From an uncultured Gammaproteobacteria bacterium (GTDB taxonomy: Bacteria > Pseudomonadota > Gammaproteobacteria > Steroidobacterales > Rariloculaceae): a stretch of DNA of 64,000 nt. The DNA is taken from positions 462,382 through 526,381 of the forward strand of contig CAWDUG010000014.1 in assembly GCA_963805435.1 (NCBI GenBank), read 5' to 3'. How positions within the stretch are numbered: position 1 is the first letter of the stretch; each line of letters starts with the position of its first letter. Position numbers and translations under genes: made by a program. The notes beneath the pieces are model-generated. The model made no database searches and had not been told where the DNA came from. It was given only the letters and a program-made list of their open reading frames with translations. Below are positions 1 to 64,000 of this stretch, piece by piece.

Positions 1-1913
1 AAGCCGATCACGGACATGTTGCGGCCGGCGTATCGCGCACTGATGCGCAAGCACGTCGGCTTCCTTGGCACGGAAGAGCAGCTGGTGGCGTTCGAAGTGC
101 AGCTGATCAGCGCGGATGACCATGGGCTCTGGGCGGAGCTGCACAGCAAGCGAAATAGTCTTCAACGGCGAGGCCGCGCTTCTGACCGTGGCGCGTGACA
201 TCACGCATCGCAAAAGCCTCGAGGCGTCGCTCGGCCGCAGCAAGCTTCAGGCACGCATCACGCTCGAGTCGATCGGTGAAGGCGTCATTACCACGGATCG
301 CAACGGCACGATCGACTACATGAACGAAGCGGCAGAGCAGTTGGTTGGCGGCACGCGCGCCGCCGGCATCGGCAAACGTCTGCTCGATCTGCTCACGCTC
401 GTCGACGAAGTCGACCGCAGCTCGCTTGGCGATCCCGTCACGAAGTGCTTGAGCGAACGCCGACGCGTGAATCTCGGCCGGCGCGCATTCCTGTTGAGCA
501 AGCTCTCGGATCGCGAGTTCTCGACGGAGCTCACGGCTTCGCCGATTCGCGGGCCCGACGGTCAAGTCGCAGGCTGCGTCGTGATCTTCCACGACGTGAG
601 CGAGCTGCGCGGGCTCGCACGCGAGATGTCATACCAGGCCAGCCACGATGCGCTGACCGGCCTCGTGAACCGCGCGGAGTTCGAGCGGCGGCTCGGAGCC
701 GCGCTCGATTCGGCTCGCGGCGAAGCCGTGAGTCACGTGGTGTGCTATCTCGACCTCGACCGCTTCAAGCTCGTGAATGATACCGCCGGCCATATCGCCG
801 GCGACAATCTGCTGCGCGAGATCTCGGCGCTGATCAAACAACGTCTGCGCGATTCGGACACCGTGGCGCGCGTCGGCGGCGACGAGTTCGCGATGCTGCT
901 CGCAGGCTGCCCCGTCGACAAGGCGCGCCAAATCGCCGACGACGTGTGCCATTCGGTCGCGAACCAGCAGTTCTCATGGCAAGACCACAGCTTCGACGTC
1001 GGCGTCAGCGTAGGTCTCGTCGAGGTCAACAAGGACAGCGGTTCGGCCGAGAGCGTGCTCTCCGCCGCCGATTCGGCGTGCTATGTCGCGAAGCAACAGG
1101 GCCGCGGCCGCATCCACGTGTACTCGTCGCGCGACGAAGTCGTGGCGCGCGAGCGCGGCGAGATCCAGTGGCTGCAGCGGCTGCAGCGGGCGCTGAAGGA
1201 GAACGGCTTCGAGCTCTACGTTCAGCCGATCATCGCGCTCGGCGGGCGTGGCAGCACGGGGCCGGCCGCCGAGATCCTGCTGCGCATGCGCGACGAATCG
1301 GGCACCGTAATCGCGCCCGTGCATTTCCTGGCGTCGGCCGAACGTTACCAGCTGATGTCGCATATCGATCGCTGGGTGGTGCGCGCGTCGCTTGACGGCG
1401 CTTGCCGGTGGCGCGCCGCATCTGCCCGTGGGGCGCACCTGCAACATCAATCTCTCGGCGCAAACGCTCGGCGACGACGATTTCCTCGAGTTCGTCGTCG
1501 ACGTGCTCGATCACACGGGCGTGAACCCCGAGCGCATCTGCTTCGAGGCGCGCGAGTCGGCGGTAGTGAGCCAGCTCGATCACGCGCAGCGGTTCATCAA
1601 CGTGCTGCATGGCATCGGCTGCAAATTCGCGCTCGACAACTTCGGCAGCGGGATCGGCTCGTTCTCGAATCTGAAGAACCTGTCGCTCGACTACGTGAAG
1701 ATCGACGGCACGTACACGCGCAACCTCGACGAGGACAGCGTGAATCGAGAGATGGTGGCCGCCATGGTCAAGCTCGCGCGCTCGCTCGATTTTCAGATCG
1801 TGGCCGAGCAGGTAGAGGACCAGGAGTCGTTCGAGACGCTGCGCTCGCTCGGCGTGGACTTCGTGCAAGGCTTCGTCATCGAGAAGCCCCGCCCCCTACA
1901 GGCAGTCCACTAG
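1..1913 (+). pseudogene. PAS-PAS-GGDEF-EAL c-di-GMP signalling protein; 5' end outside the window; frame broken twice (pseudogene or sequence error)
   Basis: ORF fragments 16-198, 116-1939 and 1392-1913 join into one protein if one base is dropped near 148 and near 1391. Motifs read directly: PAS ends LLTVARDITHRK and VVIFHDVSELR, GGDEF box VARVGGDEFAML, EAL half ELYVQPII / LDYVKIDG / DFVQGF. The frame is open to position 1. Confidence 0.9.
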
Positions 1914-1972
1914 CCGCCGCTGCGTTCGCTGTCGAGTAACGCCACCCTCGCGTCCCAGCGTGGGCTCAGGCT

Positions 1973-3481
1973 TCATCGCGGTTGTAGCCAGTTCGGCAGG
2001 AACGCGTAAGGATCGCCGGCAAGCTCGCCCTTGTGTGCGACGCCGTGTTTCGCCAGCAGCCCAGGCAGCTTGCCACTCTTCCACGCTTCAAACGCGTCGG
2101 TGGCGCCACCGACGAACTCGTTGCCGACGAAGATCTGCGGGATCGTTTTCCACGTGGTGCGCTCGGCGAGCGCCGCGCGGATCTGTCCACCCCAGTCGTC
2201 TTTCTGGTACGCAACCGAGTCGAGGTCGATCGACTGATACGGGATTTTGTAGGCTGCGAACATGCGGCGAACCGACCAGCAGAACTCGCACCACTCGAGC
2301 GCGAACATCACCACCGGCTGCTTCGCATCGGCCGTGACCTCGGCGACGAACGCTGCGGCCGTGGGCGTTACCGGAAGCGGCGGCTCGGGCGCTTTCGGCA
2401 CGGGCGTAGGCGCAGATGCGGCGGCCGGCGGCGGTGCGTCAAACCGCGCGCGTGGTGTCGAGCGCGAGATTGCCAGTTCCTCGTCGGTCATGTCGGTCGG
2501 TACGTCGGCGAACAGCGGCGTACTGAGATATCGCTCGCCCGTGTCGGGTAGCATCGCGAGAACGTTGGTGCCAGGCGGCGCGGATTTGCAGATCGTGAGT
2601 GCACCGGCAAGCGTGGCGCCGCTCGAAGTGCCGACGAAGATGCCCTCCTTCTGCGCGAGCTCGCGCGCCAGGCGCAGTGCCTCGCCGCCATTCACGGGCA
2701 CGATCTCGTCGATGAGCTTGGCGGCGACAACGTCTTCCGCGAGCCTGGGAATGAAGTCCGGCGACCAGCCCTGCATCAAATGTGGCCGGAACAGGGGATG
2801 GCTCGCCGACGGCGAGCCGTCGGCCGCACGAGGCTGCGGAATGCCGCTGCCGAGCGTCTGCGAGTTGTCGGGCTCGCACACGACCACCTTCGTCTTCGGG
2901 CTGCGCATCTTCAGCACACGCGCGACCCCCTTCAGCGTGCCGCCGGTGCCGAAGCCGGTGACCCAGTAGTCGAGCGTCGTATCCGCGAAATCCGCGAGGA
3001 TCTCCTCCGCCGTGGTTCGCGTGTGGACATCGGGGTTCGCTTCGTTCTCGAACTGCCGGCAGAGGAACCAGCCGTGCTTCTCGGCCAGCTCGAGCGCTTT
3101 CGCGAGCATGCCCGTGCCCTTCTCGGCCGCGGGTGTGAGGATGACTTTCGCGCCCAGGAATCGCATGAGCTTGCGGCGTTCGACGCTGAAGTTTTCGGCC
3201 ATCGTGACCACGAGCGGATAGCCTTTGCGTGCGCAGACCATCGCAAGGCCTATGCCCGTGTTGCCGCTCGTCGCTTCGATCACCGTCTGACCGGGCGCGA
3301 GCTTGCCGCTGCGCTCGGCCTCTTCTATTACACCAAGCGCGAGCCGGTCCTTGACCGAGCCCATCGGGTTGAACGCTTCGATCTTGACGTACAGGTTCAC
3401 GCCGGCCGGCGCGAGCTTGTTGATACGAACGACCGGCGTGCGTCCGATCGTCTGCAGGATGTCGTCGTAGCGCTTGCCCAT
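1973..3481 (-). CDS. Cysteine synthase family (PLP-dependent, CysK/CysM-like) fused to a C-terminal glutaredoxin-like domain
   Basis: Intact 502-aa ORF. The N-terminal ~320 aa carry the PLP-lysine motif NPMGSVKDR plus TSGNTGIGLA and GFGTGGT. A Pro/Ala-rich linker follows. The C-terminal ~110 aa carry a CxxC site (WCEFCW) and the glutaredoxin signature TIPQIFVGNEFVGGATD. Confidence 0.85.
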   Translation of the reverse strand: MGKRYDDILQTIGRTPVVRINKLAPAGVNLYVKIEAFNPMGSVKDRLALGVIEEAERSGKLAPGQTVIEATSGNTGIGLAMVCARKGYPLVVTMAENFSVERRKLMRFLGAKVILTPAAEKGTGMLAKALELAEKHGWFLCRQFENEANPDVHTRTTAEEILADFADTTLDYWVTGFGTGGTLKGVARVLKMRSPKTKVVVCEPDNSQTLGSGIPQPRAADGSPSASHPLFRPHLMQGWSPDFIPRLAEDVVAAKLIDEIVPVNGGEALRLARELAQKEGIFVGTSSGATLAGALTICKSAPPGTNVLAMLPDTGERYLSTPLFADVPTDMTDEELAISRSTPRARFDAPPPAAASAPTPVPKAPEPPLPVTPTAAAFVAEVTADAKQPVVMFALEWCEFCWSVRRMFAAYKIPYQSIDLDSVAYQKDDWGGQIRAALAERTTWKTIPQIFVGNEFVGGATDAFEAWKSGKLPGLLAKHGVAHKGELAGDPYAFLPNWLQPR

Positions 3482-3600: not shown

Positions 3601-5739
3601 TCAGCGCCTGCGTACCAGGTGTGGCATGGCCACTTCGACCGGCTCCGGGCGAGGCTTGGCTTTACCTACGTAAAAGCCCTGCGCGTAGTCGATACCGTAC
3701 TTCGCGAGTAACGCTAGCGTGGCCGCGCTGTGCACGTACTCCGCCACGGTCTGCATGCCGGCCGCGCGTGCGACTTCGCCGACCATTCTGCACCATCGCC
3801 TGGTCGACCCGATCGCGCGGTAAGCCGCGGATGAACGAGCCGTCGATCTTCAGGTAATCGACGGGCAGACGTTTCAGGTAGCTGAACGAGCTGTAGCCCG
3901 TGCCGAAGTCATCGATTGCGAGTCGGCAGCCGAGCTCGCGCAGCAACGCGATCTGCTTGTCGGTGCTCGCGGCAAAGCGGACGGCCAATTGCTCGGTGAT
4001 CTCGATCACGAGCCGCTCGCCGGACACGCCGTGCTCGTTGAGCAGCTTCTTCACGTACGCGCCGAGCGAATCGTCCTCGAACGCAAAGCCGGAGAGATTC
4101 ACAGACAGCGTGAGGTTCGGTTGAGTCTCCTGGAATTCGCGCAGTGCTCGCACCACGAGCCTCAGCACGCAGCGATCGATGTCTGCCATGAGCCCGAAGC
4201 GCACGGCCGCCGGCAGGAACGAGGACGGGCTCACGAGGCCGTGCTCCGTCTTCAGGCGCAGCAACGCTTCGTAGTGCCGTACCGTGCCACTCTTGATGTG
4301 CAGCAAGGGCTGATAGTGCAGCTCGAGCCCGCTGTTCTCGAGCGCCGCGCGCAGGCGGTTCATCCAGTCGATGTCGCGCGCCATCTGCTCGCTTTGTTTG
4401 CCGGCCGTGCTGTAGAACTCGACGCGATTGCGCCCGTGCGCCTTGGCCGTCTGGCACGCCATGTCGGCCTGCGCGATGACTTCCTGGGCGCTGAACCGTG
4501 CGCCGCCGAACGTGGCGACGCCGATGCTGCACTGCAGGTGAAACACCTGTTCCTGCTCCACGTGCTTCAGGCCGCGCATGAGCTCGAGCACCTTTGCAGC
4601 CACGAGCTTCGCGTCGCCACGCGACACGTTGCGCAGCAGCACGACGAACTCGTCGCCGCCGAAGCGCGCCACAAAGTCCTCGGGCCGCACGGCGTAGCGC
4701 AGTTGTTGTGCCGCGAGCTGCAACAGGTGATCGCCGGACGCGTGGCCGCACGTGTCGTTCACGTATTTGAACTGATCGAGATCGACGAAGAACAGCGCAC
4801 ACTTCGTGTTGTCGCTGGCAGAGGCGGCGATCGCGTCTTCGAGCTCCGCGATCAGGCGATGGCGGTTGTGCAGCCCCGTGAGCTGGTCGTGATTCGCGAG
4901 ATGCAGCAGGCGCCGTTCGCGTTTCTGAAGCGCGTGTATCGTGTTGTCGAGCGCGGTCACTATCGCGCGCAGCTCCGTGTGCGGGGAATCCGGGAACTTC
5001 AAGATCCGTCTCGCCCGCGGCGAGCCGCGCGAGCGAGCCTTGCAGGGCGGACAGTGGCGCGAGCGCGCGCTTCAAGAACCATCGGCCGCAAGCCCACGAA
5101 ATGCCGAGCAGTACGAGGAGTACGGCGCTCGCGAGCGCCGAGCCGCGGCAGGAACGCGCTCTGATAGCTCGAGAAATCGAGGTCCACGCTGACGAAGCCG
5201 AGCAGGTGCGCCGAGGTCTTGGCGGACTTCAGATCGAGGTCGAGCAGCCCGTCGCCGGCCAGCGATTCGGTCCAGATGGGGCCGAGCAACCGGTAGCGCT
5301 GTGTGCTGGCTGCGTCCTGCTTCAGTAGGTAGGGACGAGCCGCGCCGGCGAGCATCGAGAGCTCTGCCACGCTCTTGGCGTCGAGCGCGTCGGCCACGGG
5401 CCCCGCCGGGCCCGAGTCCTTCAATGCTTGCAGCGCCCGGCCGTCGGCGGCGTACCAGCTCACGCGCTCGATCTCGGGGTACGTCGCGACGAAGCGCTCG
5501 ATGTCGAGCACGGACCCCGTACTGTCCGCCAGATAGAGAGGAGCGCCGAGCTCGTTCAGCTCGCCGGCCCACTGCGTGGCCCAGTGCTCGAGGTTGTTGC
5601 GGATCACGGAACCCGACGTCCACGCGAGGCCGATCAGCGCAATGACGCCGATCAGGGCAGCGACCGCGAGCTGCACGCCGAGCACCTCGGTCACGAGGCT
5701 GCGGCTGCGCCACGGTGCGTTGCCGTCAGTCGGGGTCAC
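3601..5739 (-). pseudogene. Transmembrane sensor-HAMP-GGDEF-EAL protein; frame broken three times
   Basis: Fragments 4999-5739, the first ~25 codons of 3909-5075, 3662-5002 and 3601-3786 join if one base is dropped near 5139, 5003 and 3787. Order of elements: TM helix LAVAALIGVIALIGLAW, ~170-aa periplasmic region, second TM ALASAVLLVLLGISWA, HAMP-like linker, GGDEF (ARFGGDEFVVLL), EAL (ELHYQPLL, DYLKIDGSF, YAQGFY). Confidence 0.9.
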
Positions 5740-18558: not shown

Positions 18559-21395
18559 TCAGCGACGCGTACTGGCGGGTGGCAGTGCCGCTCGCGCGTC
18601 GAACTTCGTCTCGAACCAGTCGATGAAATCGCCGATGTCTGACCTCGCCTTGGGAGCGAGCGCGGCGATAAACGCGCGCGCGTCGTCGGTCTTACCGTTC
18701 CTGGCGAGCAGGTACAGCAGCAGGCTCGCGCGACCGGTCGAGAGTTTCCCGTCCGCGGCGCTCATGGAGCGCGCAAAGGTCTGCAATGCGCCTGCGTAGT
18801 CGCGTTGCGCGAGGCGGCCGAGTGCGAGCTCGATCGCAACGTCGGCCCGCACGATACCTCGCTCTGCGAGTGCGAGAGCGTTTCTCTGCGCGTCCCGATC
18901 GGTGCCGAGCAGCCACAGCGGCAGCGTTTCGAGACGGCTGTTCGTGAGCACGTCGTCGACAGATTCCCACAGGACAGACGGGTCTGTGGCCGGGTACACT
19001 CCTGCGGTGAAGTGATCCTTGATCAGGCCTTCGTAGTGGAAGTACGGCAGCGTCTGCGCGGCGAGCTCCCGCGGCCAAACGCGCTCGATGAATTCGCTGT
19101 GCTCGAAACGCGCGAGCCGCTCGCGCTCGTCCATGACCGCTGCGTAGAGCGGAACGCGCCGCGGGTCGCCGACCAGCTCGCTCGAAATCCGCAACGGGTA
19201 GTTATCGGTGACCGGCGGCAGATTTGCGGTGATGCTGGCAAGATAGGGCGCATCGCCCATGAAGAGCGCGCCCATCTGCTCCGGCAGCTCGAAGCCGAGT
19301 GCCACGAGCTCGCGGCGCACCCGCTCGTCGCGCCATTGCGCGGTGAACGTGTCGGTCGGCACACGGTTGGTCGCGCCGTTGCCGCCCATCAGCATCCACT
19401 CGAGTCCCGCGCCGTCCCACAGCGTGCAGTCCTCGAACACGTTGCAGAACGCCTTGATGATCGCGAGCGTGTCGAGCGGCTGGAGCTGGTGCACGGGAAG
19501 CCAGTACGTCGTGTGACCGTTCGGTGTCAGGTGATCGCGAATTGCCTGGAAGTACTCCTGCGTATAGAGATTGACGACGCCGGCGACCTTCGGCGGCGGC
19601 GGCTCTGATGTGATCAGATCGTATTTGCGCGCGTGCGTGGCGAGGTAAAAACGGCCGTCCTCGATGTGGACGTTCACGCGCGGGTCGTGCAGCGGGTTGT
19701 CGGCGTCGGAGTAGACGACCGAGCTCATCGCGAGGATCTCGCGCGAGATGTCGACCACGTCGATGTGTTGCAAGCGGGAAGAATCGGTCAACGCCTTGGC
19801 CGTGGAGCCCACGCCGTAGCTGATCAGCAGCGCGTCGTGCGCGTCAGCCTGAAGCGCGAGCGGCAGGTACACGTACAGCTTCATGTAGCGCTTGCCGATG
19901 ACCGTCGTCGCGGACATCGAGTAGCCGTTTGTCACGAGGCGGTAGTACGCCGGCGCGTCGAACACATCGCGGCGGTAGTAGCGCAGCGTCTCGGTGAGAC
20001 CTTCGCGCGTCGCGATCAGCTTGTGCTCCGGCAGTGCGCGTTCGACGATCTTGAAGAACGAGCGCTCCATGAGCCCGAACGGGAACAGCACGAGCGCCAC
20101 GGCGGTGATCGCGATCGCGCCCCAGGCCGAGCGCGCGGACTGGGTACTTTCCGCGGTTCGCGGCGCCGGCACGAGCAGGGAGGTGGCGCAATACGCAGCC
20201 GCGAGCGCGAACAGCGAGCGTTCCATGCCGAGCGTCGGTAGCAGCACGAAGCCAGCCGCGAGCGAGCCCACCGTCGCGCCGATCGTGTTCCACAAAGCGA
20301 CGAGCCCCGTCGTGCGCATCGACCCACCGAGCTCCTGCTTGACCGCGTGCGCCCCGAGCGTGAAGGCGGTGCCGGACAGCAACGACACGGGCAGCATCAG
20401 GAACACGGCGAAACCCACGAACACAGGCAGCGTCGCGCTCTGGCGAAAGAGCTCCGCCGTGAACAGATCGAAGCCGTAGTACGTGGCCACGACCATGAGG
20501 CCGCTGAATGCCGTCACGTGCGCCAGCCAGCGGTGGCAGCGCTCATCGCGGTGCGCGAGCTTGCCGGCGGCCAAGCCGCCAAGGCCGATGCCCGCGAGCA
20601 CGATGGTCAGCATCACGGCGAACGTGAGCCCGGTGCCGGTGTACGTGAGCAGCAGGAATCGGAACCACACGACCTCGAGCGCGAGCATGACCGCGCCGGA
20701 CAGCAGCGCGACGCAGAGATAGCGATACGTTCGCGTCGAGAACGGCGTCGAAGACGGTGCAGCCGCCGGTGCGGCGGCGGGTTCGGCGGCGAGACGCAAC
20801 GCCATCGCGCCGGCGGCGAGATTCAGCAGCATCGCAATAAGGCCCGTGCTCGTGATGCCGAAGAGGCGCACGAGCATCGCTTCGGTGCCGATCGCGCCGA
20901 GCATCGCGCCGAGCGTGTTCCAGCCGTAGAGCTTGCCTACGGTGGCGCCGAAGCTCGGGTTCGATCGCGACAGGGCTTCGGTCAGGAGCGGCAGTGTCGC
21001 GCCCATCGCCGTCGTTGGCAGCACGAGCAGCGCGAATGCGCTGCCAAGGCGCGCGGTGTTCAGAAGCCCAAGGAGTGTCCGCGACGGTCACGAACAGCGG
21101 ACCGAGGGCGCCTGAAAGGTCGCGGCAGGGCGAGCACGACGAGGAAGCTGCCGACGCCGATCGCGAGCTCGAGCAGCGCGTACAGCCTGATCGGATCCGC
21201 GACTCGCGAGTAGAACCTTGCGACCAGGCCGTTGCCGAGCGTGAGGCCGCCCATGAATGCCGCGAGCACGAGGCTTGCGCTCCAGACGCTGTTGCCGAGC
21301 GAGAGCCCCGCGAGCCGGAACCACAGGGTCTCGAACGTCAGCCCGGCGATACCGGACACGAAGAAGATCGGGACCAACGCGTTGGGTATTCGCAT
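18559..21395 (-). pseudogene. Fused polytopic membrane (MFS-like) / spermidine-synthase-like / TPR-like protein; frame broken twice
   Basis: ORFs 21060-21431, a short part of 20543-21091, and 18559-21024 join if one base is dropped near 21119 and 21073 (..ALPR/LSGALGPLFVTVADT/LGLLNTARLG..). Many TM helices are followed by a SAM-MTase/aminopropyltransferase-like core (LLISYGVGSTAKAL, DVVDISREI, YDLITSEPPPP) and a helical repeat tail. Start is ATG 21395 or 21431. Confidence 0.75.
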
Positions 21396-21522: not shown

Positions 21523-22397
21523 CTAGCCGGGCAGTGGGCGCACGTCGACCGCGACGGCCACCTGGTGCGCGCCGCCGCCGACGATGAAGCCGTTGATCGG
21601 GCTCACGTCGCCGTAGTCGCGGCCCCAGCCGACGGTGATGTGCTCGACGTTCGGGATCAGATTGTTCGTGGGGTCGAAGTCGACCCAGCCGTCGGGGCCG
21701 GCCCAGACCGACAGCCAGGCGTGCGACGCGTCCGAGCCCACGAGCTTTTCCTTGCCCTCCGGCGGCCGCGTGAGCAGGTAACCGCTCACGTAGCGCGCAG
21801 CGAGGCCGAGGCTGCGCAGGCATGCGATTTGTAGATGCGCGAAGTCCTGGCACACGCCGCGACGCATCGCGAACACCTCGCGTACCGGTGTCGACACGTC
21901 CGACACGCCGCCGCGGTACTCGAACTCGCGGAAGATACGGCTCGGTGAGATCCATCGCCGCCGCGAGAATCGGTCGACCAGGCGTGAACGACACGCGCGC
22001 GTAGTCGTAGACCTCGTCGCTGCCCACGATGTGCGGCGACTCGAAAGAGAACTCGTAAGCCTCGAGCGCGGAGTCCGTCGCGAGCCGGCCGCGTACTTCC
22101 TCCCACGGCTCGCTCGATTCGAGCACGAGCGGTACGGCCGTGGGCCGAACCTCTACGCGCGAATGCGCGTCGACGACGAGCCGCTCGTGGGGTTCCTGCA
22201 CCGTGAGGTATTGAACCGGGTTGCCGAAGTAGTCCTCGCCGTTGCGAGTCCACGGCCGGTGATGGATCGACGACCATTGCCGCGTCGATGGTCGTCTGGC
22301 GCGGATGCTGTCGCGGCGTCAGGTGCAGAACGTGGTGCGATACGGACACCACGTCCTCGTACGTGAACGTGGTCTTGTGGCGGACGTCGTAGATCAC
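21523..22397 (-). pseudogene. Transglutaminase-like protein (Bact_transglu_N + transglutaminase core); frame broken twice
   Basis: GTG 22397 overlaps the upstream stop (GTGA). Three frames join if one base is dropped near 22245 and 21940 (VIYDVRHKTTFTYE.. / ..EDYFGNPVQYLTVQEPHERL.. / ..RIFREFEYRGG..). Cys/His/Asp set: GVCQDFAHL, SHAWLSVW, VDFDPTNN. Confidence 0.85.
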
Positions 22398-24932: not shown

Positions 24933-25021
24933 TTTGGCTTCAGCCGACGCGTAAGCGTTCGGTGCGGTAGTTGGTGGCCGACATGATCCCCGATGCTTAC
25001 CCGTCCGTGGCGGATTCTACT

Positions 25022-28000
25022 TCAGTGCGACCAGCGCAAATCGAGCGTATGCGGCAGCTCGGGGCGCGTCAGTGACTGCGGCTCAGGCCCCAAGCCCGGC
25101 GTATGCCCGAACGGGAAGAACCGCGCGAGGCGCCGGCTCTCGGCTTCGTATGCGTTCACGGGGAACTCGTCGAAACTGCGGCCGCCCGGATGCGCGACGT
25201 GGTAGGTACAGCCGGCCACGGCGCGCCCGGACCACCGATCGTACAGGTCGAACGTCAGCGGCGCATCGACCGGGATCGTGGGCTGCAAGCTCGACGCCGG
25301 TTGCCACGCGCGGTAGCGAACGCCCCCGGTGTACTCGCCGGCCGTGCCCGTGCCCGTCATCGGAACCCGCCAGCCGTTGCAGGCAATGACATAGCGTTGC
25401 TCGTTGAAGCCGCGCACTCGCACCTGCATGCGCTCGAGCGACGAGTCGACGTAGCGAACGGTGCCGCCGACCGCGCCTTCCTCGCCGAGCACGTGCCACG
25501 GCTCGAGCGCCTGGCGCAGCTCGATCTCCACGGCGCCGTATTGCACGCTGCCGTATAGCGGAAAGCGGAATTCGTAGTGGGGCGCGAACCAGCTTACGTC
25601 GAGCGGATAACCCGCGCGGTTCATGTCGTCGATGACGTCGGCGAAATCGTTCCAGACGTGGAACGGCAGCATGAACTTGTCGTGCAGCTGCGTGCCCCAG
25701 CGCACGAGGTCGCCGCGATACGGCGTGCGCCAGAACCGTGACGACGAGCGAAAGCAGCAGCACCTGCTGCACGAGGCTCATTTGCGGGTGCGGCGGCATC
25801 TCGAACGCGCGGAACTCGACTAGGCCTAGCCGGCCCGTCGGCCCGTCCGGGGAGTACAGCTTGTCGATGCAGATCTCCGTGCGGTGCGTGTTGCCGGTCA
25901 AGTCGATCAGGAGATTGCGGAACAGCCGATCGACGAGCCACGGCGGTATGGGGGAGAGCGCCTGATCCGCCTGTTTGAACGCGAGCTCGAGCTCGTGCAG
26001 CGAATCGTGCCGCGCCTCGTCGATACGCGGCGCCTGGCTCGTTGGGCCGATGAACAGCCCCGAGAAGAGATAAGAGAGAGAAGGATGATGCTGCCAGTAC
26101 GTCACGAGGCTGCGCAGCAGGTCGGGCCGACGCAAGAAAGGGCTGTCCGCCGCGCGCGCGGCGCCAAGCACCACGTGATTGCCGCCGCCCGTGCCCGTGT
26201 GCCGGCCGTCGACCATGAACTTCTCGGTCACGAGCCGCGAATGGTGGGCGTCGTCGTAGAGCCCCTCGGTAATCTCGCGCATCTCGTCCCAGCTGCCGGC
26301 CGGTTGCACGTTGACTTCGATGACGCCGGGATCGGGTGTGACCTTGATGAGGTTCAAGCGCGGGTCGCGCGGCGGCTCGTAGCCCTCGAGATGAACCGGC
26401 AGGTCGAGCTCGGCCGCTGTGTCCTCGACCGCGGCGACGAGGTCGAGGTAATCCTCGAGCTCGACGACGGGCGGCATGAACACGCAGAGGCGCCCATGCC
26501 GCGGCTCGACCGCGATCGCGGTGCGCGCTGCCTGGCCCGGCGCGGAACGCTGCGACGTGCCGCGCTCGCGGCGAGCTTCGCGCTGTTCGCCGCGCAGAAA
26601 CGGCTGGCGCAGCGGATGCGGCTCGGGCAACTCGCCATGCTCGTCGAAGGGGTCCGACGGAATCACATACGGATACTCGAGCTGCGAGATGTACGGCAAC
26701 GACGGTAGCGGTAACCGGAAACCGAGCGGCGAGTCGCCGGGCATCAGGAACAACTTGCCGGATCGCGTGCTCCAGTGTGCCGTGTTCCAGCGGCGCACGT
26801 CTTTCGCCTGCGCGTTCCAGCGTTGCACGGGTAGCACGTAGCCGACGGGCTTGCCGAGCCCTCGCTCGAAGACGCGCGCCAGACGCGCGCGCGTCATCGG
26901 GTCGTCGAGTCGGTTCGTCGCGGTCTCGAGATTCTCGGGCAGCCTGCGTTCCTGGCCCATGAAGTGCCAGGGGTCCTCGTACGCGGCGGTCACCGCTTTC
27001 ACGTCGAGCTCGAGCCGGCTCGCGACACCGCGCAGGAACTCGCCGGCCTGCTCGGCCGTGACGCCGTAGTCCTTTTGTTCGGCCGCCACCAGTGCGGCGT
27101 TTTGCCACAGCGGCTTGTCGTCGCGGCGCCAATATAAGGAGAAGGCCCAGCGCGGCAGCTGCTCGCCCGGGTACCACTTGCCCTGGCCGTAATGCAGCAT
27201 GCCGTGCGGCGCGAACCGCGTGCGCAGGCGCTGAATCAGGTCGGCCGCGAACTTGCGTTTCGTGGGCCCCACGGCCGCCGTGTTCCACTCGGCCCCGTCC
27301 GGATCGTCCATCGCGACGAACGTGGGCTCGCCGCCGATCGTGACGCGCACGTCGTCGGTCTCGAGCTGCCGCTCGACCTGGCGGCCGAAGGCGTCGATCG
27401 CGCGCCACTGCTCTTCGCTGTACGGCTTCGTCACGCGCGGCGATTCGACGATACGGCGCACGCCCATCGTGTGCTTGAACTTCGTCTCGCATTCCTCGAT
27501 TGCGCCGCTGATCGGCGCGGCGCTCACAGGATGCGGCGCGCACGCGAGCGGAATATGGCCTTCGCCCGCCCAGAGACCCGAGGTCGGATCGAGGCCGACC
27601 CAGCCGGCGCCCGGCAAGTAGACCTCTGCCCACGCGTGCAAGTCCGTGAAATCGTGGTCCGTGCCCGACGGCCCGTCGAGCGATTTCACGTCGGCCACGA
27701 GCTGGATCAGGTAGCCCGAGACGAACCGCGCAGCGAGCCCCAGGTGCCGCAGCAGGTGCACGAGCAGCCAGCCACTGTCGCGGCAGGAGCCCGAGCCGAG
27801 CGTCAGCGTCTCTTCGGGCGACTGTACGCCGGGCTCCATGCGGATCGTGTACTGGATTTCCTGCTGGAGTCGTTGGTTCAACTCGACGAGGAAGTCGATG
27901 GTGCGGGTCTTCGGCTTGCGGCGCAGCTCGGCCACCCACTTCTTCACGAGCGGCCCGGCCGGTTTCACGATCAGGAACGGCTCGAGGTCCTGCTTGAGCT

Positions 28001-32936: not shown

Positions 32937-34122
32937 ATGAATCGACGACGGTTGCTCCGAGGTGCGGCCGGTGCCGCCGTGACGTTCGCTGCGCCGCGGC
33001 GGATGTTCGCAGCCGATTACGACTCTCGTGATCCGGGGTGGCCGCGTCATCGATCCTTCGCAGCGCCTCTCTGCCCAGGCGGACGTCGCGATTCGCGACG
33101 GCAAGATCGCGGCCGTGCGAAGCGGCATTCCAGCGTCTGCCGGCCTGGATTCGATCGACGCGCGTGGCAAGCTCGTGGTGCCGGGGTTGATCGACATTCA
33201 CCTGCATGCGCGCGACGCGGAGCTGCCGCCGCCCGAGATTCTGTCGACCGGCGTCACCACGATGGTCGATGCCGGCTCGAAGGGCGCGGACAACGTCGAC
33301 CAGATTCTCGATATCGCACGCCGCGCGCCGAACCGGCTGCGCGTGCTGCTGAACATCGCGCGGCTCGGCAACAATCCGGGCGGTCGCGGCGAGTTTCTCG
33401 ACGGTCTCGAGCAGGCGGACGTGGAGAAAGCGCAGCGCGCCCTCGCCGAGCATCGGGACTTTATCGTCGGAATCAAGGCGCGTCTGTCGAAGGGCATCGC
33501 GGCCAACCGCGATCGCGACGTCCTCACGCTCGCACTGCGAGTGGCAGAGCCGGCGCGCGTGCCGGTCATGATCCACGTCGGCAACACCGCCACGCCGCTG
33601 CCGCAGCTGCTCGAGCTGCTGCGCCCGGGCGACATCGTGACGCACATGTATGCGTCCGAGAATGGCATCCTCGATGCGAGCGGCCGCGTGCAGCCGCAGG
33701 TGCGCGCCGCACGGCAACGCGGCGTGCTGTTCGACTTCGGCAATGGGTTGAACGAGCACTGGAGCTGGGACGTAGCGCAGCGCGGCTTGGATCAGGGCTT
33801 CGCGCCCGACACCATCTCGTCGGATCTGAACGTGCCGGGGCGGACGGCGCAGGTGTTCGACCTGCCGAACGTGCTGTCGAAGTTCCTGCTGCTCGGCATG
33901 CCGCTCGACGACGTCGTCGCGTGCGTCACGAGCCGCGCGGCCAAGGTATTCACTCCGCTGAACGCGTACGGAACCTTGCGCGTGGGCGCGACGGCCGATG
34001 TCGCGGTGCTCGAGCTGACCGAAGGGTCGTTCGAGTTCCTCGACAACTACCAAGGGATGCGACCGGGTACGCGCCGGCTCGTCACGCGCGCCGTCGTGTT
34101 TGGCGGTAAGCGAGTCGGCTAG
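32937..34122 (+). pseudogene. Tat-exported amidohydrolase/deacetylase-family metallohydrolase; one frame break
   Basis: ORF 32937 (MNRRRLLRGAAGAAVTFAAP.. twin-arginine signal) and ORF 33028-34122 join if the t at ~33024 is dropped (..AADYD/LVIRGGRVIDPS..). HxH metal site GLIDIHLH. Confidence 0.8.
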
Positions 34123-34156: not shown

Positions 34157-35006
34157 TTGACTCGTGGTGTGTGTCTTTGCGGCGCCGTGGAGTATCAGTT
34201 CACCGCGCCGTTCACGATGATGATGCATTGCCACTGCTCGATGTGCCGCAAGCATCACGGCGCGGCGTTCGCCACGTTCGTCGCGGCGCCGCACTCGGCG
34301 TTTCGGTGGGTACGCGGCGAAGACGCGATCGGAACATACCGGTCGTCGGAGCGCGGCGCTCGCTCGCACTGTCGGCAGTGTGGATCCGTTGCGCCGATGC
34401 TGATGCCCGAGTCCGGGCTCGCGATCGCCCCGGCCGGCAATCTCGACGGCGATCCCGGTATCCGGCCGCAAGGCCACATGTTCGTGGGCTCGAAAGCCGG
34501 CTGGTACACGATCACCGATTCGTTGCCGCAGCATGCGGCGATGCCGCCCGACTTCGGCGGCGGCATGGGAGTGGCGCGCCCCACCGTCGAGCAACGCGAG
34601 GGCGTGGCCGACGGCAGCTGTCTGTGCGGCGAGGTGGCCTACGAAGTTCGCAAGCCCGTGCGCATGTACCACTGCCACTGCTCGCGCTGCCGTCGCGCGC
34701 GCAGCGCTGCGCACACGACGAACATGTTCTCGAGCATCGCCGACTTCGCGTTCACGCGCGGCGAGGAGCTCGTGACCGAATACAAGGTGCCCGAGGCTTT
34801 GCGGTTTGGCGTGGCGTTCTGCACGAGCTGCGGCGGCAAGGTGCCGCGGGTTCGCACGCGAGCGAGGAACGGTCGTCTTGCCCGTCGGCGCACTCGATAC
34901 GGACCCCGGTATGCGGCCGCAGGCGAACATCTTCGTGGCCTCGAAAGCGCCGTGGTTCGATATCACGGACGCGCTGCCGCAGTTCGCGGAGATGCCGCCG
35001 AGCTGA
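34157..35006 (+). pseudogene. Tandem double GFA-domain protein; one frame break
   Basis: ORFs 34157-35065 and 34806-35006 join if one base near 34853 is dropped. Two copies of the GFA Cys pattern: CLCGAVEY..HCHCSMCRK..CRQCG and CLCGEVAYE..HCHCSRCRR..CTSCGG. Confidence 0.75.
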
Positions 35007-35043: not shown

Positions 35044-36703
35044 CTACGGCAGGCCAAACACCTGAATGCGGCTCTTGTCGGCCGCGCCGGGCCAGATCCT
35101 GGACTTCATGCCCGACGCCACGCCGATCCGCTGCTTGCCGCCGGCCGAATAGCTCACGATGCCGCCGCCGATCGATTGCCCCGTGTCGAGCTGCCACAGC
35201 ACGGCGCCGTTCTCCGCGTCGAACGCGCGCAGCTCGCCGCGCAGGTCGGCGCTGAACACGATGCCGCCGGCCGTCGGCGTGACGCCCGCCAGCACGGGCG
35301 CGGGTGCCGCGAATTTCCAGCGCACGGCGCCGGTGTCCGCGTCGAACGCCGTGATCCAGCCCTTGGCTTCCGTCGGGCGGGCCCTGAATGTCGTCGGTCT
35401 TCGAGCCGAACCAGATGGCGCCCGGCTGCCGGCACCGCGGTCTCGTCCTGCAGCTGCACCGTGGCGCACCAATCGACCGCGCCCGTGAACAACGCGTTCA
35501 AGCCCGGATGGAACGCGGCGCCGTTCCATTCGTTGCCGCCCTGAATGCCGGGGCAGAAGCGCACGGGCGCCGTGCGCGACAGCGGCACGTCGACGTTCTC
35601 GCGCGTCGTGGTCGGCGACTGAAAGAGCAGCGGCAGTTTCGACGCACAGGTCTCCCGTGACGGCCCCCGGCGCCACGGCGCCGCGATCGAGCACCGACAG
35701 CAGGCCGTCCTTGTTGGCCGAAGCGACGATCGCGCGGCCGCCGCGCGTCGTAGCGAGCGCGGGCGGGCTGTTCACGTCCCAGTCGTGGTTGTCGTGCTTG
35801 ACGATCTGGTTGTAGCCGAGCATTCGGCCGGTGGCGGCGTCGAGCGCGATGATCGAGTTCGTGTAGAGATTGTCGCCGCCGCGCGCCTCGGCATCGAAAT
35901 CCGGCGCCGGGTTGCCGGCCGGCACGTACAGCATGCCGCGCCCGGTGTCGAGCGTGAACGAGGTCCAGAACGCGCCGCCCGTGATCGGATAGCGCGCCGC
36001 GTTCGGCCACGTGGCGCGAACCGCCGGTTCGTCTGGCACCGACGTCGAACTTCCACACCACGTGGCCGTCGGCCGCATCGAGCGCATACGCGTGCCCGCT
36101 GACGCCGGTCTGATCGCCGCCGGCGTGGCCGATGAACACGAGACCGTTCGCCGCGATCGGCGCCATGGGCATCGTCACACCCGGCACCCTCACGTCGATC
36201 TCGTGATCCCACAACGTGTGGCCGTCGTTCGCGTCGAGCGCCAGCACGTGCGCGTCCGTGGTGCCGCGGAACAGCCGCCCGTCGAGATACGCGAAGCCGC
36301 GATGCACGCCGAGCGGGGACGGGTGCTCCACGGGCCGTTCGACATTCCATTTCTCGGCGCAGGTGGCCGCGTCGATTGCGTACGAGCGCGTCTCGGTCGT
36401 GAAGTACATCGCGCCGGCGACGACGATCGGGCCCGTCTGCAGCGCGGAGACTTCCGGCAACGTGTAGCTGCACACCGCCGTGAGCTGCGCGACGTTGCCG
36501 CGATTGATCTCGTCGAGCGGCGAGAAGCGATCGCCCGCGAGCGTGCGGTTGTAGGCGGGCCAATCCCCGGCCGGCACCGCTTGTTGTGCTGCGCGCGCCG
36601 GTGGCGGCGTCGGCGCGGTGGCCGGAGCCGAGCTCGTGCCGCCGTTGCACGCGGTCAGAAACACGGCAGCCAACGCAACGAAAATCGCCAGCCAGTTACG
36701 CAT
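35044..36703 (-). pseudogene. PQQ-dependent dehydrogenase-like beta-propeller lipoprotein; frame broken four times
   Basis: Pieces of ORFs 35498-36703, 35044-36087 and 35154-35588, then 35044-36087 again, join if one base is dropped near 36040, ~35650, 35420 and 35374. Lipobox FLTAC. Repeated PQQ-propeller strings: ALDANDGHTLW, ALDAADGHVVWKF, ALDAATGRML, AFDADTGAVRWKF, AFDAENGAVLWQL. Confidence 0.75.
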
Positions 36704-40309: not shown

Positions 40310-43322
<3,013 letters not shown>

Positions 43323-49949: not shown

Positions 49950-51966
<2,017 letters not shown>

Positions 51967-54166: not shown

Positions 54167-55263
54167 CCGGTGCCGTCCCCTGCGCGAGCAGCGCCGCGAG
54201 CTCGGCCGCTCGCCAGCCTTGTGTCAGATGTGCCGGCGGTCTGCCGGCCGCCACCGCCACGAGATCGCGACGCGTCGCGAGAATCTCTGGTTCGAGGCCG
54301 AGCCTCGCGGCATGCACCCGTACCTGCTCCTGCAGTGCCTTGATCGCATTCTTGTCGGGCGCTGCGTGCGATGCGTTCGCGCGCACCTCGGCCTGTAGAT
54401 CGGGTTGCTCGTGCGCCGCAACAGCAGCGAGCACGGTAGCGCTGTTACGAGCGGCGAACTTGTCCGGGACGAGAGCGTTGAGAGCGGCCGCGTCGCGTGG
54501 CATCGCGGCCGCGATTGCGAGCAGCAGCTCGTCGGTCAGCAGCCAACGGCGCGGTCGGTCCGCACGCTGCGCGGCCGCCTCTCGCCAGCGCACGAGCGCG
54601 AGCGCCGCGCATTGCCCTGCGAACGGTAGCCCGTGCAGGCCTTTCAAGCGGGTCCATAGGGTCAACGTGTCGGTCTCGGGCCGCTCGGCGAGCGCGCGCG
54701 CGCACTCCTCATCGAGCCAGGCGGTGCGGCCGAGCTCCTCGAGCTGCGCAGAAACTCGGTCCCACGCGGCGAGCAGGTGGCGTACGTCGTCGAGTGCGTA
54801 CGCGAGCGCCGCCGCCGGCAGCGGACGGCGGCTCCAGTCGGTGCGGGCGTAGCTCTCGCCGAGCTCGACGCCGAGCGTGCGGGCCAGCAGGGTCTCGAGG
54901 CCGATCTGTGGTGCGTTGCCGGTCAGAGCAGCGGCGATCTGCGTGTCGATCAAGTGCGGCGGCATGCGTTGCGCGCGCTGCCAGACAACTTCGAGGTCCT
55001 GGCGCGCGCTGTGCAGTACCCACGTGAAGTCGGGGCGAAAAAGCTCGGCATACAGCGGCGAGAGGTCGAGAGGTGCCAGGCAGTCGATGCAGGCGACGTC
55101 GTCGCGCGTGGCGATCTGAATCAGGCACAGCTGCGGGTAGTAGGTCTTCTCGCGGACGAACTCGGTGTCGACGGCCGCAAGCGTTGTGCGCTTCAAGGCC
55201 GCGACCAGGCGCTCGAGCGAGTCGCTCGTGGCTACCCAGCCAGATTTCGTCTGCGGTCGTCAT
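54141..55263 (-). pseudogene. rnd: Ribonuclease D; one frame break near the N-terminus
   Basis: ATG 55263 (MTTADEIWLG) and ORF 54141-55196 join if the base at ~55233 is dropped (..IWLG/ATSDSLERLVAALKRTTLAAVDTEFVRE..). DEDD exonuclease motifs are followed by an HRDC-like tail. The 3' end overlaps adk by 26 nt (convergent). Confidence 0.85.
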
Positions 55264-57222: not shown

Positions 57223-57248
57223 ACATCGGGCGATCGCCTGAGCGTGCC

Positions 57249-58083: not shown

Positions 58084-58090
58084 AGCCCCG

Positions 58091-58976
58091 TTACTGCAGG
58101 CGCGCGACTTCGTGGCCGCGCGCCTTCAGCATGTCGATGACGTTGTCGCGGCCGACGAGGTGCAGCGCGCCGACGACGACGAGATAGTGCCGGCCGTCGC
58201 GCAAGTAGCGCTCGAGCGGCCCGACCCAGGCGGCGTTGCGCTTCTTCACGAGCGTTTCGTACAACCCCGGGAACGCGTCGAAATCAGCCAGCAGGCCCTC
58301 GCTCAGAGTCTCGAGGTGGCCATCGCGCCACGCCGCAGCCAACTTCGCCATTTCCGTGTTCGCTTCGTCGAGCTCATTCAGGGTCTGTTCGAGCATGGCC
58401 TGCTGCGAGTCGCGCGGCAGCGCGTCGAAGATCCCGATCTGCAGCTCGAGCGTTTCGAGCCCGATGATCGGCTTGTGCGTTTCGTGCGATTTGCGCAGCA
58501 GGTACTGCTCGAGACCGCGTTCGCCCTCGAAGCCGAACTTGCGCATGCCTTGATCTAAGATCGCGATCGACAGGAACCAAGGCTCGAACCGTTCGAGCAG
58601 CGAGAGGTCGATGCCCATGTCGCGCGTGCGCTGCGCGGCCAGCTCGTACACCTTTGCGTCCACGACGTCGCGCAGCACGGTGCCGAGTGGCAGGGTCGCG
58701 GCCCGCATGATGATCGCCTGCTGCGTTGCAGGATCCGTCGCGTCGAGATCGAGTTCCATGATGAGGGCGTCGGCGCGCGCGAATAACCTGTCGATCGTGG
58801 CGGGCAGCGGATAGTCGGTTGCGCGCAGCACGTGCATCGATCCCAGGAACGTGATGTCGCCGCCCTGCTTGCCCGCGATGCGCCATGCGGCCGGATCGGC
58901 CGCAGCGGTACCCGCAGCGCAGACGCGCGCCGACAAGCGCGAGCCACGCGAGGATCAATCGGCTTGGGGGACCCAT
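58091..58976 (-). pseudogene. TraB/GumN family protein; probable frame break within the signal peptide
   Basis: ORF 58091-58936 carries the family core (GGDITFLGSMHVL.., VVVGALHLVG). ATG 58976 in another frame gives a signal peptide [17 protein letters not shown] that joins if one base near 58925 is dropped. The alternative is an unbroken TTG start at 58936 without a signal peptide. Confidence 0.7.
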
Positions 58977-59737: not shown

Positions 59738-59952
59738 GCGGCGGTCGGTGTTCGAAAGACGACTTATGTGGCGTTCGATCATACACGCAGACGCTGGTGT
59801 GGGCGGGGACTGGCTCACAGAACCTCGCCGCTGCTCGGTTGCACCCCGTGTCCCCGGTAAGCGACAATCGCTTTTCGTCTGCGCAAATTCCACGCCCAGT
59901 TACACGGGTCGCCGCCGATCGACCCAGGCACAGTAATCAGAATAAGAACGCC

Positions 59953-61980: not shown

Positions 61981-62018
61981 TTTTCAACGTCGTCGTCAGG
62001 CCTGCCAAGGGAGGCATC

Positions 62019-63034
62019 ATGCCCGTCAAAGTAGCAATCAACGGCTATGGCCGTATCGGTCGCAACGTCCTGCGCGCGCTCTACGAAGGTAAGCGCCGCG
62101 GCGAAATCCAGATCGTCGCCGTCAACGATCTCGGTGATGCCAAGACCAACGCGCATCTGACGCGCTACGACACGACGCATGGCCCGTTCCCGTTCCCGGT
62201 CGACGGTCGACGGCGACAGCCTCGTCGTCGACGGCGACCGCATCAAGGTGTGTGCGGAGCGCGATCCGTCGAAGCTGCCGTGGGGGGCGCTCGGCGTCGA
62301 CATCGTGCTCGAGTGCACCGGGCTCTTCACGACCAAGGACAAAGCCGGAATGCACCTGAAGGCCGGCGCCAAGAAAGTCATCATCTCGGCGCCGGGCGGC
62401 AAGGACGTGGACGCGACGATCGTCTACGGCGTGAACCACAACGTGCTGAAGGCGAGTCGACACGGTCATATCGAACGCGTCGTGCACCACGAATTGCCTC
62501 GCACCGATCGCGAAGGTATTGCACGAGACGGTCGGCCTCGTGCGCGGCATCATGACCACGGTGCATGCGTACACGAACGACCAAGTGCTGACCGACGTCT
62601 ACCACAGCGACCTGCGTCGCGCCCGTTCGGCCACGCAGAACATGATTCCGACGAAGACCGGTGCCGCCGCGGCCGTGGGCCTCGTGATGCCGGAGCTCGA
62701 CGGCAAGCTCGACGGGTTCTCCGTGCGCGTACCGACGATCAACGTCTCGCTCGTGGACCTCACGTTCGAGGCCGCGCGTGCGACGACCGTGAAAGAGATC
62801 GACGAAGCGATGAAGAAGGCGAGCCAAGGCGCGTTGAAGGGCGTGCTCGGGTACGTCGACGAGCCGCTCGTATCGAGCGATTTCAACCACAACCCCGCGT
62901 CGTCACTGTACGACTCGAGCTTGACGAAGATCATCGACGGCAAGCTCGTGAAAGTCTGCTCGTGGTACGACAACGAGTGGGGCTTCTCGAACCGGATGCT
63001 CGACACGACGCTCGCGTTCGCAGCCGCCAAGTAG
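62019..63034 (+). pseudogene. gap: Glyceraldehyde-3-phosphate dehydrogenase; frame broken twice
   Basis: ATG 62019 (AAGGGAGG upstream). Three frames join if one base is dropped at ~62205 and ~62458 (..[19 protein letters not shown]..). Motifs [19 protein letters not shown] and WYDNEWGFS. Confidence 0.95.
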
Positions 63035-63062
63035 CGCAGCCGTGGCGCTCGAGGTCAAACGC

Positions 63063-64000
63063 ATGGCGGATCTGGCACTGCGCGGCAAGCGCGTGCTGAT
63101 TCGCGAGGACCTGAACGTCCCGGTCAAGAACGGCAAGATCACGAGCACTGCGCGACTTCAGGCGGCGCTGCCTACGTTGCGCGCCGCGCTCGATGCAGGT
63201 GCGCGTGTCATGGTCATGTCGCATCTCGGCCGGCCGAAGGAGGGCAAGGTCGACCCCGCGCAGTCGCTCGCGCCCGTCGCTTCGAAGCTAGGCGAGATGC
63301 TCGGCCGCAAGGTCCCGCTCGCGACGAACTGGCTCGACGGCGTGGCCCTCGAAGACGGCGAGCTCGTGCTCTGCGAGAACGTTCGTTTCGAAATCGGCGA
63401 GGAAGCCGACGACGAGAAGCTCGCGCGGCGCATGGCGGCGCTGTGCGACGTGTTCGTCATGGATGCGTTCGGCACTGCGCATCGCGCGCAGGCGAGTACG
63501 AACGGCGTGGCTCGTTTCGCCCCTGTCGCCTGCGCGGGCCCGCTGCTCGTGGCCGAGCTGGAGGCGCTTGCGGCGGCGCTCAAGAGCCCGAAACGCCCGC
63601 TCGTCGCCATTCTCGGCGGCTCGAAGGTCTCGACGAAGCTCGAAGTGCTGCAGTCGCTGTCCTCGCAGGTCGACGAGCTGATCCTGGGTGGCGGCATCGC
63701 GAACACCGTGCTCGCAGCGTCCGGTGCGCCGGTCGGTAAGTCGCTCTACGAGAAGGACATGCTCGACTTTGCGAAGAAGCTTCTGAACGGCGGCTTCGGG
63801 AAAGCGAAGATTCCGCTGCCGGTCGACGTCGTCGTCGCGCCGAGCTTGGACGCGGGCGTGCGCGGCGCGATCAAGAAGGTCGACAGCCGTTGGCGCCGAC
63901 GACATGATCCTCGACATCGGTCCGCAGACGGCGGATCTCTACGCTGCGCGGCTCGCAAGCGCCGGCAGCATCGTGTGGAACGGCCCCGTGGGCGTGTTCG
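63063..64000 (+). pseudogene. pgk: Phosphoglycerate kinase, 3' end outside the window; one frame break
   Basis: Not in the ORF track because no stop occurs in the window. Hand translation from ATG 63063 (or GTG 63042): [21 protein letters not shown]...[10 protein letters not shown]...[15 protein letters not shown]...[10 protein letters not shown]... The frame shifts at ~63888 (..[19 protein letters not shown]..). Confidence 0.9.

Follow-up and report, generated by a model that had tools for sequence, protein, structure and literature searches.

How have about 33 stray extra bases come to disrupt 17 otherwise healthy, conserved genes in the 64,000 nt stretch of gammaproteobacterial DNA analysed here in its entirety, termed the window? 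The initial annotation of this locus listed 30 reading-frame breaks in these genes, each equivalent to a single additional base, and found neither an event of the opposite sign nor a premature in-frame stop. Such a pattern could represent real gene decay, an unusual mode of decoding or an error in the sequence itself.

The window was compared with independent relatives of 82-96% DNA identity, comprising a SPAdes-named MAG (L001/L056), L054 (JGI 3300005836, 95.9% identity), L055, L057 and L058 (all JGI 3300037878), L059-L064 and L134. All 30 listed breaks were located within 10 nt of the positions first given, 29 of them by DNA alignment; that in hppA falls in a variable loop and was resolved using proteins 98% identical to its product. 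In these proteins the loop reads TEAGLSGLKFDL, whereas the window encodes TEAGLAG and LKFDL either side of an extra C at around position 50505. Three further events were identified, one coding (24969), one at a stop codon (25022) and one in a 5' untranslated region (59755), such that the mean insertion density across the window is approximately 0.5 per kb (Table 1).

All 33 events are isolated gains of one base by the window, private to its contig: none of the insertions was present in any of the relatives in the DNA comparison set. For example, the sole gaps in an 11.2 kb single-HSP alignment to L054 are six extra bases in the window. No isolated loss of a base was found in coding sequence when the window was compared with its relatives. 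When orthologous proteins were aligned to the window with tblastn, adjacent query residues flanked exactly one skipped base at each junction resolved, upholding the positions and uniform sign of the breaks, with no mixture of gains and losses. Similarly, a Viterbi segmentation based on codon usage, blind to the listed junctions, recovered nearly all of them in this 66% G+C window.

Table 1. Single extra bases in the window. '+1 vs' names the relatives over which the window has one additional base; tblastn residues are those contiguous in the orthologue unless stated.
Event	Position	Strand	Evidence
Extra A, PAS-GGDEF-EAL gene (1-1913, 5' end cut by window)	153..155	+	+1 vs L057; tblastn frame 1 to 2
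Extra T, PAS-GGDEF-EAL gene	1392..1393	+	+1 vs L057; tblastn frame 2 to 3
Extra base (plus-strand G), GGDEF-EAL gene (~3604-5739)	3790	-	+1 vs L057; repaired 712/712 codons including stop
Extra base (plus-strand G), GGDEF-EAL gene	5003	-	+1 vs L057
Extra base (plus-strand C), GGDEF-EAL gene	5138..5139	-	+1 vs L057; tblastn residues 200/201 flank skipped 5139
Extra G, conserved ~505-aa gene (13222-14740)	13735	+	+1 vs 7 independent metagenome contigs (L059-L064, L134)
Extra base, spermine-synthase-like membrane protein gene (18559-21389)	21063..21064	-	+1 vs L058, L064; tblastn residues 108/109
Extra base, spermine-synthase-like gene	21119..21120	-	+1 vs L058, L064; tblastn residues 90/91
Extra base, transglutaminase-like gene (21523-22397)	21943..21945	-	+1 vs L056, L058, L064; tblastn residues 151/152
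Extra base, transglutaminase-like gene	22241	-	+1 vs L056, L058, L064; flanks fully conserved
Extra base, CP-ATP-grasp/alpha-E fusion gene (22394-24984)	23939	-	+1 vs L058; tblastn residues 348/349
Extra base, ~codon 5 of CP-ATP-grasp/alpha-E gene, newly found	24969	-	+1 vs L056, L058; flanks identical to L058; tblastn match from residue 6
Extra base at or just past DUF2126 stop codon, protein unaffected, newly found	25021..25022	.	+1 vs L056, L058; orthologue's last residue aligns at 25025
Extra base, transglutaminase/DUF2126 gene (25022-28325)	25741..25742	-	+1 vs L056, L058; tblastn residues 861/862
Extra C, amidohydrolase gene (32937-34122)	33023..33024	+	+1 vs L001, L056, L058; tblastn residues 29/30
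Extra base, GFA-family gene (34157-35006)	34851..34853	+	+1 vs L001, L058; repaired 283/283 codons including stop
Extra base, PQQ-dependent dehydrogenase gene (35044-36703)	35375..35377	-	+1 vs L001, L058
Extra base, PQQ-dependent dehydrogenase gene	35427..35428	-	+1 vs L001, L058
Extra base, PQQ-dependent dehydrogenase gene	35645	-	+1 vs L001, L058
Extra base, PQQ-dependent dehydrogenase gene	36040..36041	-	+1 vs L001, L058; tblastn residues 221/222; repaired 552/552 codons including stop
Extra base, Amidohydro_2 gene (~40310-41190)	40467	-	+1 vs L001, L056
Extra base, Amidohydro_2 gene	40656	-	+1 vs L001, L056
Extra base, Amidohydro_2 gene, 15 nt from 40656 event	40670..40671	-	+1 vs L001, L056
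Extra base, FadB-like enoyl-CoA hydratase/3-hydroxyacyl-CoA dehydrogenase gene (41199-43322)	41368	-	+1 vs L001, L139
Extra base, FadB-like gene	41472	-	+1 vs L001, L139
Extra base, FadB-like gene	42360..42364	-	+1 vs L001, L139
Extra C (coding strand), H+/Na+-pyrophosphatase gene hppA (49950-51966)	50505..50506 (listed as 50511)	-	Comparison with 98%-identical proteins
Extra base, ~codon 7 of rnd, RNase D (54141-55263)	55242..55243	-	+1 vs L054, L055; tblastn from residue 8; repaired 374/374 codons including stop
Extra base, TraB/GumN-family gene (58091-58977)	58922..58924	-	+1 vs L054, L055; tblastn frame -3 to -1
Extra A, non-coding, 18 nt 5' of cpdA start codon, newly found	59755..59757	.	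+1 vs L054, L055, identical flanks; cpdA orthologue aligns from 59737
Extra base, gap (62019-63034)	62201..62205	+	+1 vs L054, L055
Extra T, gap	62457	+	+1 vs L054, L055; repaired 338/338 codons including stop, no internal stop
Extra base, pgk (63063 to window end)	63884..63885	+	+1 vs L054, L055; tblastn frame 3 to 1

Removal of the 33 bases yields unbroken reading frames, with no internal stops in the repaired genes of the window, in accordance with the earlier proposal that deleting a single base restores a conserved protein in each case. The repaired frame was the same length as that of the orthologue in all 11 complete genes compared, the CP-ATP-grasp gene for instance matching at 863 of 863 codons, stop included. 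The broken genes show no sign of decay, because dN/dS downstream of the breaks (0.124) is close to that of intact genes (0.113); the value upstream of the breaks is 0.117. Hence the genes themselves are almost certainly intact in the living population. Those broken do include the normally indispensable gap, pgk, hppA and rnd, as had been remarked.

The sequence context of the insertions appears unstructured. The 31 coding sites are divided between the codon phases in the ratio 11:8:12, all four nucleotides are represented among the inserted bases, and no shared motif, positional base preference or enriched k-mer was found at the insertion sites. The next stop codon in the shifted frame is between 0 and 2151 nt away (median 342 nt). 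An identical base adjoins 9 of the 31 coding insertions, compared with a fraction of approximately 0.43 expected, on our own estimate, for random placement, and runs at the insertion sites reach 3 nt at most. The suggestion that many extra bases lack an identical neighbour was thus correct in direction, but the proportion is about 70% (22 of 31 coding sites) rather than the half originally given. The impression that the events are clumped withstands statistical scrutiny, based on both the number of gaps of 7 kb or more (four; p = 0.00025) and a variance to mean ratio of 1.78 (p = 0.007): a 2 kb bin contains up to five insertions, while four stretches of 7-8.6 kb contain none. There is no excess of substitutions private to the window, at 215 relative to 194 for L054.

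At least some of these breaks are present in the public record. The frameshifted products of two of the disrupted reading frames, a 535 aa fragment of hppA and a 1080 aa fragment of the DUF2126 gene, are found residue for residue in a public protein collection, on a 661,590 bp NCBI/ENA contig of metagenomic type. Therefore at least these two belong to the deposited record and were not added to the window, leaving unsupported the idea of an edited sequence, in the sense of an edit made at the level of the window.

The extra bases are, in all likelihood, consensus errors in the deposited contig rather than mutations in the organism. The initial preference for a systematic insertion artefact over pseudogenisation is borne out by the privacy of the insertions, the intactness of the repaired genes, the unchanged selection, the lack of a recoding motif and the clumping. 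We infer that the bases originated during consensus calling or polishing, where a step may have introduced single spurious bases of random identity at approximately random positions, at a rate that would shift along the contig with regional differences in pile-up quality or read depth. Fragmentation of genes by indels is a known problem in long-read assemblies, and is worse at low coverage (PMC9262707, PMC8445201, PMC12007338). The window resembles these cases in having conserved genes split into adjacent fragments by single-base indels, which are missing from independent assemblies and whose removal restores full-length proteins; likewise, long-read metagenome contigs are typically very long, and that containing the window is 661 kb. 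The rate of such indels follows local coverage or quality in known cases, and the clumps in the window may track these same variables. An 'unpolished long-read-type consensus', as originally put forward, is plausible but unproven. Consensus errors from Nanopore and HiFi data are mainly homopolymer indels, many of them deletions (PMC12007338, PMC9262707). By contrast, the window lacks this usual platform signature of a homopolymer association and mixed signs, having insertions alone, mostly outside homopolymers, and no excess of substitutions. L139, a related and error-laden assembly, likewise differs in harbouring both signs of indel, with 19 deletions and 20 insertions in 9.7 kb. For 33 insertions to arise without a single deletion, insertions must make up more than 91% of the errors that the process generates. 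With substitutions not in excess either, the process is an almost purely insertional one.

This departure from both platform error and L139 is what might be expected were the sequence instead corrupted by software after assembly, whether by a polisher that over-corrects, by the use of mixed-strain reads for polishing, or by a bug in formatting or merging. This would still be an artefact, albeit one arising at another step. The collapse of divergent alleles can introduce indels (PMC8445201), and three of the six insertions relative to L054 have a mismatch no more than 2 nt away. However, allele collapse should yield both signs, and mismatches are not enriched near insertions overall, being within 2 nt at about 8 of 33 sites in a manual count from alignments, compared with the 35-40% or so that divergence would predict; the flanks of many sites are fully conserved. 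Such corruption is hence an improbable source of the bases. Real, very recent frameshifts, representing mass pseudogenisation in, for instance, a mutator or a population recently confined to a host, are less probable still. The deposited record does contain at least two of the frameshifts, as it would if they were real, and the pseudogenes of reductive genome evolution likewise include many frameshifted genes, some of them housekeeping. Yet bacterial gene decay is biased towards deletion, and natural slippage mutations and indels are concentrated in homopolymers, whereas all 33 events here are gains of one base, 70% of them outside homopolymers, unaccompanied by deletions, nonsense mutations, truncations or larger lesions, and without the rise in dN/dS downstream of the breaks that decay would entail. 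None is common to relatives at 96% identity, there is no mutational rationale for clumping on a 2 kb scale, and the disruption of 17 of approximately 55 genes, central ones among them, would extrapolate to the loss of around a third of the proteome.

The uniform sign of the events, and the perfect maintenance of the downstream frames, could also be accounted for if the extra bases were real and decoded, through programmed +1 ribosomal frameshifting, through an unusual tRNA that reads quadruplets, or through excision of the base from the RNA. Natural cases of +1 shifts, such as those in prfB, Euplotes and the mitochondrial nad3 and cytb genes of animals, also feature one extra nucleotide in an otherwise intact frame, but are characterized by strict motifs or a stop at the shift, and by conservation of the sites across species. 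The contexts in the window are random and private to the contig, sharing neither codon phase nor k-mer, with neither a slippery site nor a stop where the frame changes, and the absence of the insertions from relatives argues against both programmed frameshifting and slippage. The insertion of all four bases, and the occurrence of two events in DNA where they have no coding effect, similarly make decoding extremely improbable. Rescue by transcriptional slippage was considered and rejected, as the long homopolymer tract it requires is absent, and so too was quadruplet decoding by a suppressor tRNA, there being no recurring four-base codon among the diverse contexts and no tRNA gene within the window. 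It is just as difficult to credit that a free-living gammaproteobacterium truly carries the bases in its DNA, tolerating or correcting them independently of context, whether through nucleotide removal from RNA or in the wake of a very recent, insertion-only mutator burst on which selection had yet to act.

Consensus error in the deposited contig being the favoured explanation, the insertions are almost certainly not a real biological feature, and provide no evidence for new biology; their significance is solely as a warning regarding data quality. Were the rest of the 661 kb public contig to resemble the window, about a third of its genes would be wrongly annotated as pseudogenes or gene fragments, skewing gene counts, estimates of completeness, surveys of pseudogenes and the protein databases derived from the contig, fragment proteins from which are already in a public collection. 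The insertion-only, non-homopolymer signature could help to trace a fault in consensus calling or polishing, were the pipeline behind the contig to be identified.

The initial annotation had listed 30 breaks of the reading frame in 17 genes, each equivalent to one extra base. The G+C content is 62-69% throughout the window, a composition that gives rise to long spurious ORFs in all six frames. A codon-usage model was trained on the window's long high-GC3 ORFs and used for a seven-state Viterbi segmentation. Blind to the listed positions, this recovered nearly all 30 as same-strand frame switches, exactly or to within a few bases, with the downstream frame shifted by +1 along the direction of translation at every switch, and translations of the segments showed recognisable proteins running on across each junction.

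Related loci were drawn from several searches. L001 came from one scan of a genome collection for the intact TonB-dependent receptor (37036-40131); it is part of the SPAdes-named MAG 'Gammaproteobacteria bacterium cluster3_bin.180' and is syntenic with 26.3-50.8 kb of the window at 82-90% DNA identity; the first relatives found via this receptor (L050-L053) had no synteny with the window and were unusable for its flanks. A transketolase protein search gave the JGI contigs L054, matching at 95.9% DNA identity in one HSP spanning 52800-64000, and L055 (90.8%). Cluster members of other window proteins led to L056, a further part of the L001 contig, and to L057 and L058, while the 13.7-kb gene, as query in one metagenome scan, contributed L059-L064 and L134.

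In blastn gap lists and per-site alignments against these relatives, each listed site appears as an isolated gap caused by one additional base in the window. The most telling case for single-base insertions is the comparison with L054, in which the sole gaps over 11.2 kb at 95.9% identity are six extra window bases, at 55243, 58922, 59755, 62201, 62457 and 63884. Seven independent contigs likewise lack the extra base at 13735, confirming that site. Alignment of orthologous proteins to the window by tblastn skipped one window base and left the residues on either side consecutive (see table). Against L001 alone the hppA site is ambiguous, as it falls within a variable loop. Its reading in proteins with 98% identity to the window is ...[25 protein letters not shown]..., and the window encodes a loop of the same length, ...TEAGLAG, followed after a single additional C by [13 protein letters not shown]. 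Taken together, the alignments, tblastn and the hppA comparison therefore identify all 30 sites as single-base insertions, and three unlisted ones were added. Wherever relatives or the frame model covered coding sequence, no isolated single-base deletion was found, just as the initial annotation had noticed no event of opposite sign. A frame change at 47.6 kb (ORFs 46850-47683 and 47587-48432) was considered as such an event and rejected, as the two ORFs look like overlapping tandem paralogues that resemble each other at the C-terminus, and not like one broken gene. The shortened tract at 21400-21410 is the one candidate for a single-base deletion and could be either natural or a compression error, being non-coding and homopolymeric. 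The spacer between the convergent GFA-family and PQQ-dependent dehydrogenase genes, highly diverged relative to L001 and L058, could contain two further spurious insertions.

Genes, insertions and neighbouring features of the window
Feature	Position	Residues flanking skipped base (tblastn)	Codons incl. stop, repaired/orthologue	Exact public match	Observation
gap			338/338		
rnd			374/374		
GGDEF-EAL			712/712		
CP-ATP-grasp/alpha-E fusion	22394-24984		863/863		
Transglutaminase/DUF2126	25022-28325; site 25742	861/862	1100/1101	1080 aa, incl. out-of-frame tail	
Amidohydrolase	site 33024	29/30	395/395		
GFA-family gene			283/283		
PQQ-dependent dehydrogenase	site 36040	221/222	552/552		
hppA	49950-51966			535 aa, N-terminal part + out-of-frame tail	
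Unlisted insertion	24969				~codon 5 of CP-ATP-grasp/alpha-E gene
Unlisted insertion	25022				At/after DUF2126 stop
Unlisted insertion	59755				18 nt 5' of cpdA start
Spermine-synthase-like membrane protein gene	18400-21500				942 aa; missing in L001/L056 MAG, found in L058, L064
Intergenic G/C homopolymer	21400-21410				~8-9 nt; one base less than in L058, L064
Two successive sets, circularly permuted ATP-grasp, alpha-E, transglutaminase-like/DUF2126	21523-30791				Separate genes in one set, fused ATP-grasp/alpha-E in the other; syntenic in L056, L058
AraC-type regulator/amidohydrolase interval	32885-33800				L058:6695-7840 carries an additional gene for an FAD-dependent oxidoreductase (381 aa); window without
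Part of amidohydrolase gene	33203-33799				~600 bp missing at L001:6895-7049; small ORF remnants only
GFA/PQQ-dehydrogenase spacer	35007-35043				37 bp; 2 nt longer than in L001, L058
Two overlapping tandem paralogous ORFs	46850-48432				~280 aa each, alike C-terminal motifs, then DUF6152-like ORF; region missing in L001, found in L139

Deleting the 33 bases leaves uninterrupted reading frames, and the repaired genes match their orthologues in length and have no internal stops, in keeping with the earlier remark that no premature in-frame stop was seen. Measured against the closest relative, intact genes have a pooled dN/dS of 0.113; in broken genes it is 0.117 ahead of the first break and 0.124 downstream of at least one, values on which the 12 meaningless codons in the pool (from GumN and a partial PAS-GGDEF-EAL gene, with coordinates off) have a negligible effect. 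Purifying selection is unchanged in the would-be out-of-frame sequence, and the broken genes are not decayed. Private substitutions number 215 in the window, matching the 194 in L054, and hence are not in excess. In the MAG containing L001 and L056, the TonB receptor directly follows the transglutaminase gene; the presence or absence of the spermine-synthase-like gene looks like natural gene-content variation.

The 33 events amount to 0.52 per kb on average, and the clumping described from the sequence is real: four event-free stretches measure 8.6, 8.1, 7.3 and 7.3 kb, when at least four gaps of at least 7 kb arise in 0.025% of random placements, and counts in 2-kb bins have a variance/mean ratio of 1.78 (p = 0.007). 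Insertions fall in the three codon phases at 11:8:12, involve all four bases and show no base preference at flanking positions; an identical neighbour is found at only 9 of the 31 coding events, where a proportion of ~0.43 would be expected, by our estimate, if base and position were random. The shifted frame runs for 0-2151 nt (median 342 nt) to its next stop, two events are non-coding, and the window has no tRNA genes. There is no recoding signal at the insertions.

Several origins were weighed. Exact look-ups in the public protein collection (NCBI, ENA) recovered frameshifted products of window ORFs on the same 661,590-bp contig as the window's intact proteins. The hppA and DUF2126 matches mean that at least two frameshifts are part of the deposited record rather than additions made to the window, leaving the suggested 'edited sequence' unsupported as a window-level edit; three guessed fragment ORFs of other broken genes had no exact match, and their starts may differ from those of the gene caller. 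A mixed-strain consensus retaining both alleles was hinted at by 58923, 62203 and 63884, but mismatches are not enriched beside insertions overall, and the perfect conservation of many insertion flanks in the per-site alignments counts against it. Likewise, several sites create TCGAC or CGAC, as a methylation-motif or k-mer-specific error might, but in a max-count permutation test no k-mer reaches significant enrichment there, the best being CGAC (P = 0.07). No insertion site is common to the relatives, and 17 of ~55 genes are broken, among them the central genes gap, pgk, hppA and rnd. Since the insertions are confined to a single contig, break central genes, leave genes otherwise perfectly preserved, include non-coding events and cluster regionally, they point to consensus or polishing errors of the assembly, supporting the artefact interpretation of the initial annotation.

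Gene-fragmenting indels are documented in long-read assemblies, notably at low coverage or collapsed divergent alleles (PMC9262707, PMC12007338, PMC8445201), and Nanopore-only soil MAG catalogues with single Medaka polishing exist (PMC12313526). One MAG among the comparison loci bears the isolate prefix of that project, and no link between the window itself and any project was found. However, the consensus errors reported for Nanopore and HiFi are predominantly indels in homopolymers, deletions being frequent (PMC12007338, PMC9262707), whereas the window shows 33 insertions to 0 deletions, the majority away from homopolymers, and no excess of substitutions. This ratio implies an error process producing >91% insertions. 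Candidate sources would be random insertion noise that outlasted a shallow consensus, an algorithm biased towards longer paths through the consensus, or a polisher that over-corrects. The independent related assembly L139:1-10873 (GCA_037975565.1, JBBCBH010003846.1), syntenic with window 49947-60836, is also heavily gene-fragmented and plainly full of errors, with hppA in three pieces, rnd in two, and pfk, mpl and tkt truncated. By contrast with the insertion-only window, it shows missing and extra bases alike relative to L055, with 19 deletions and 20 insertions over 9.7 kb. Numerous hppA homologues of 260-390 aa, relative to ~670 aa for the full-length protein, occur on long contigs of 62-733 kb (P0283, P0286, P0314, P0327, P0334, P0340, P0376), which suggests that frameshift-broken hppA genes are common on long contigs in public collections. 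There is no evidence of a biological phenomenon behind the insertions; the finding is of use as a quality warning for the source assembly and for its oddly one-sided error signature.
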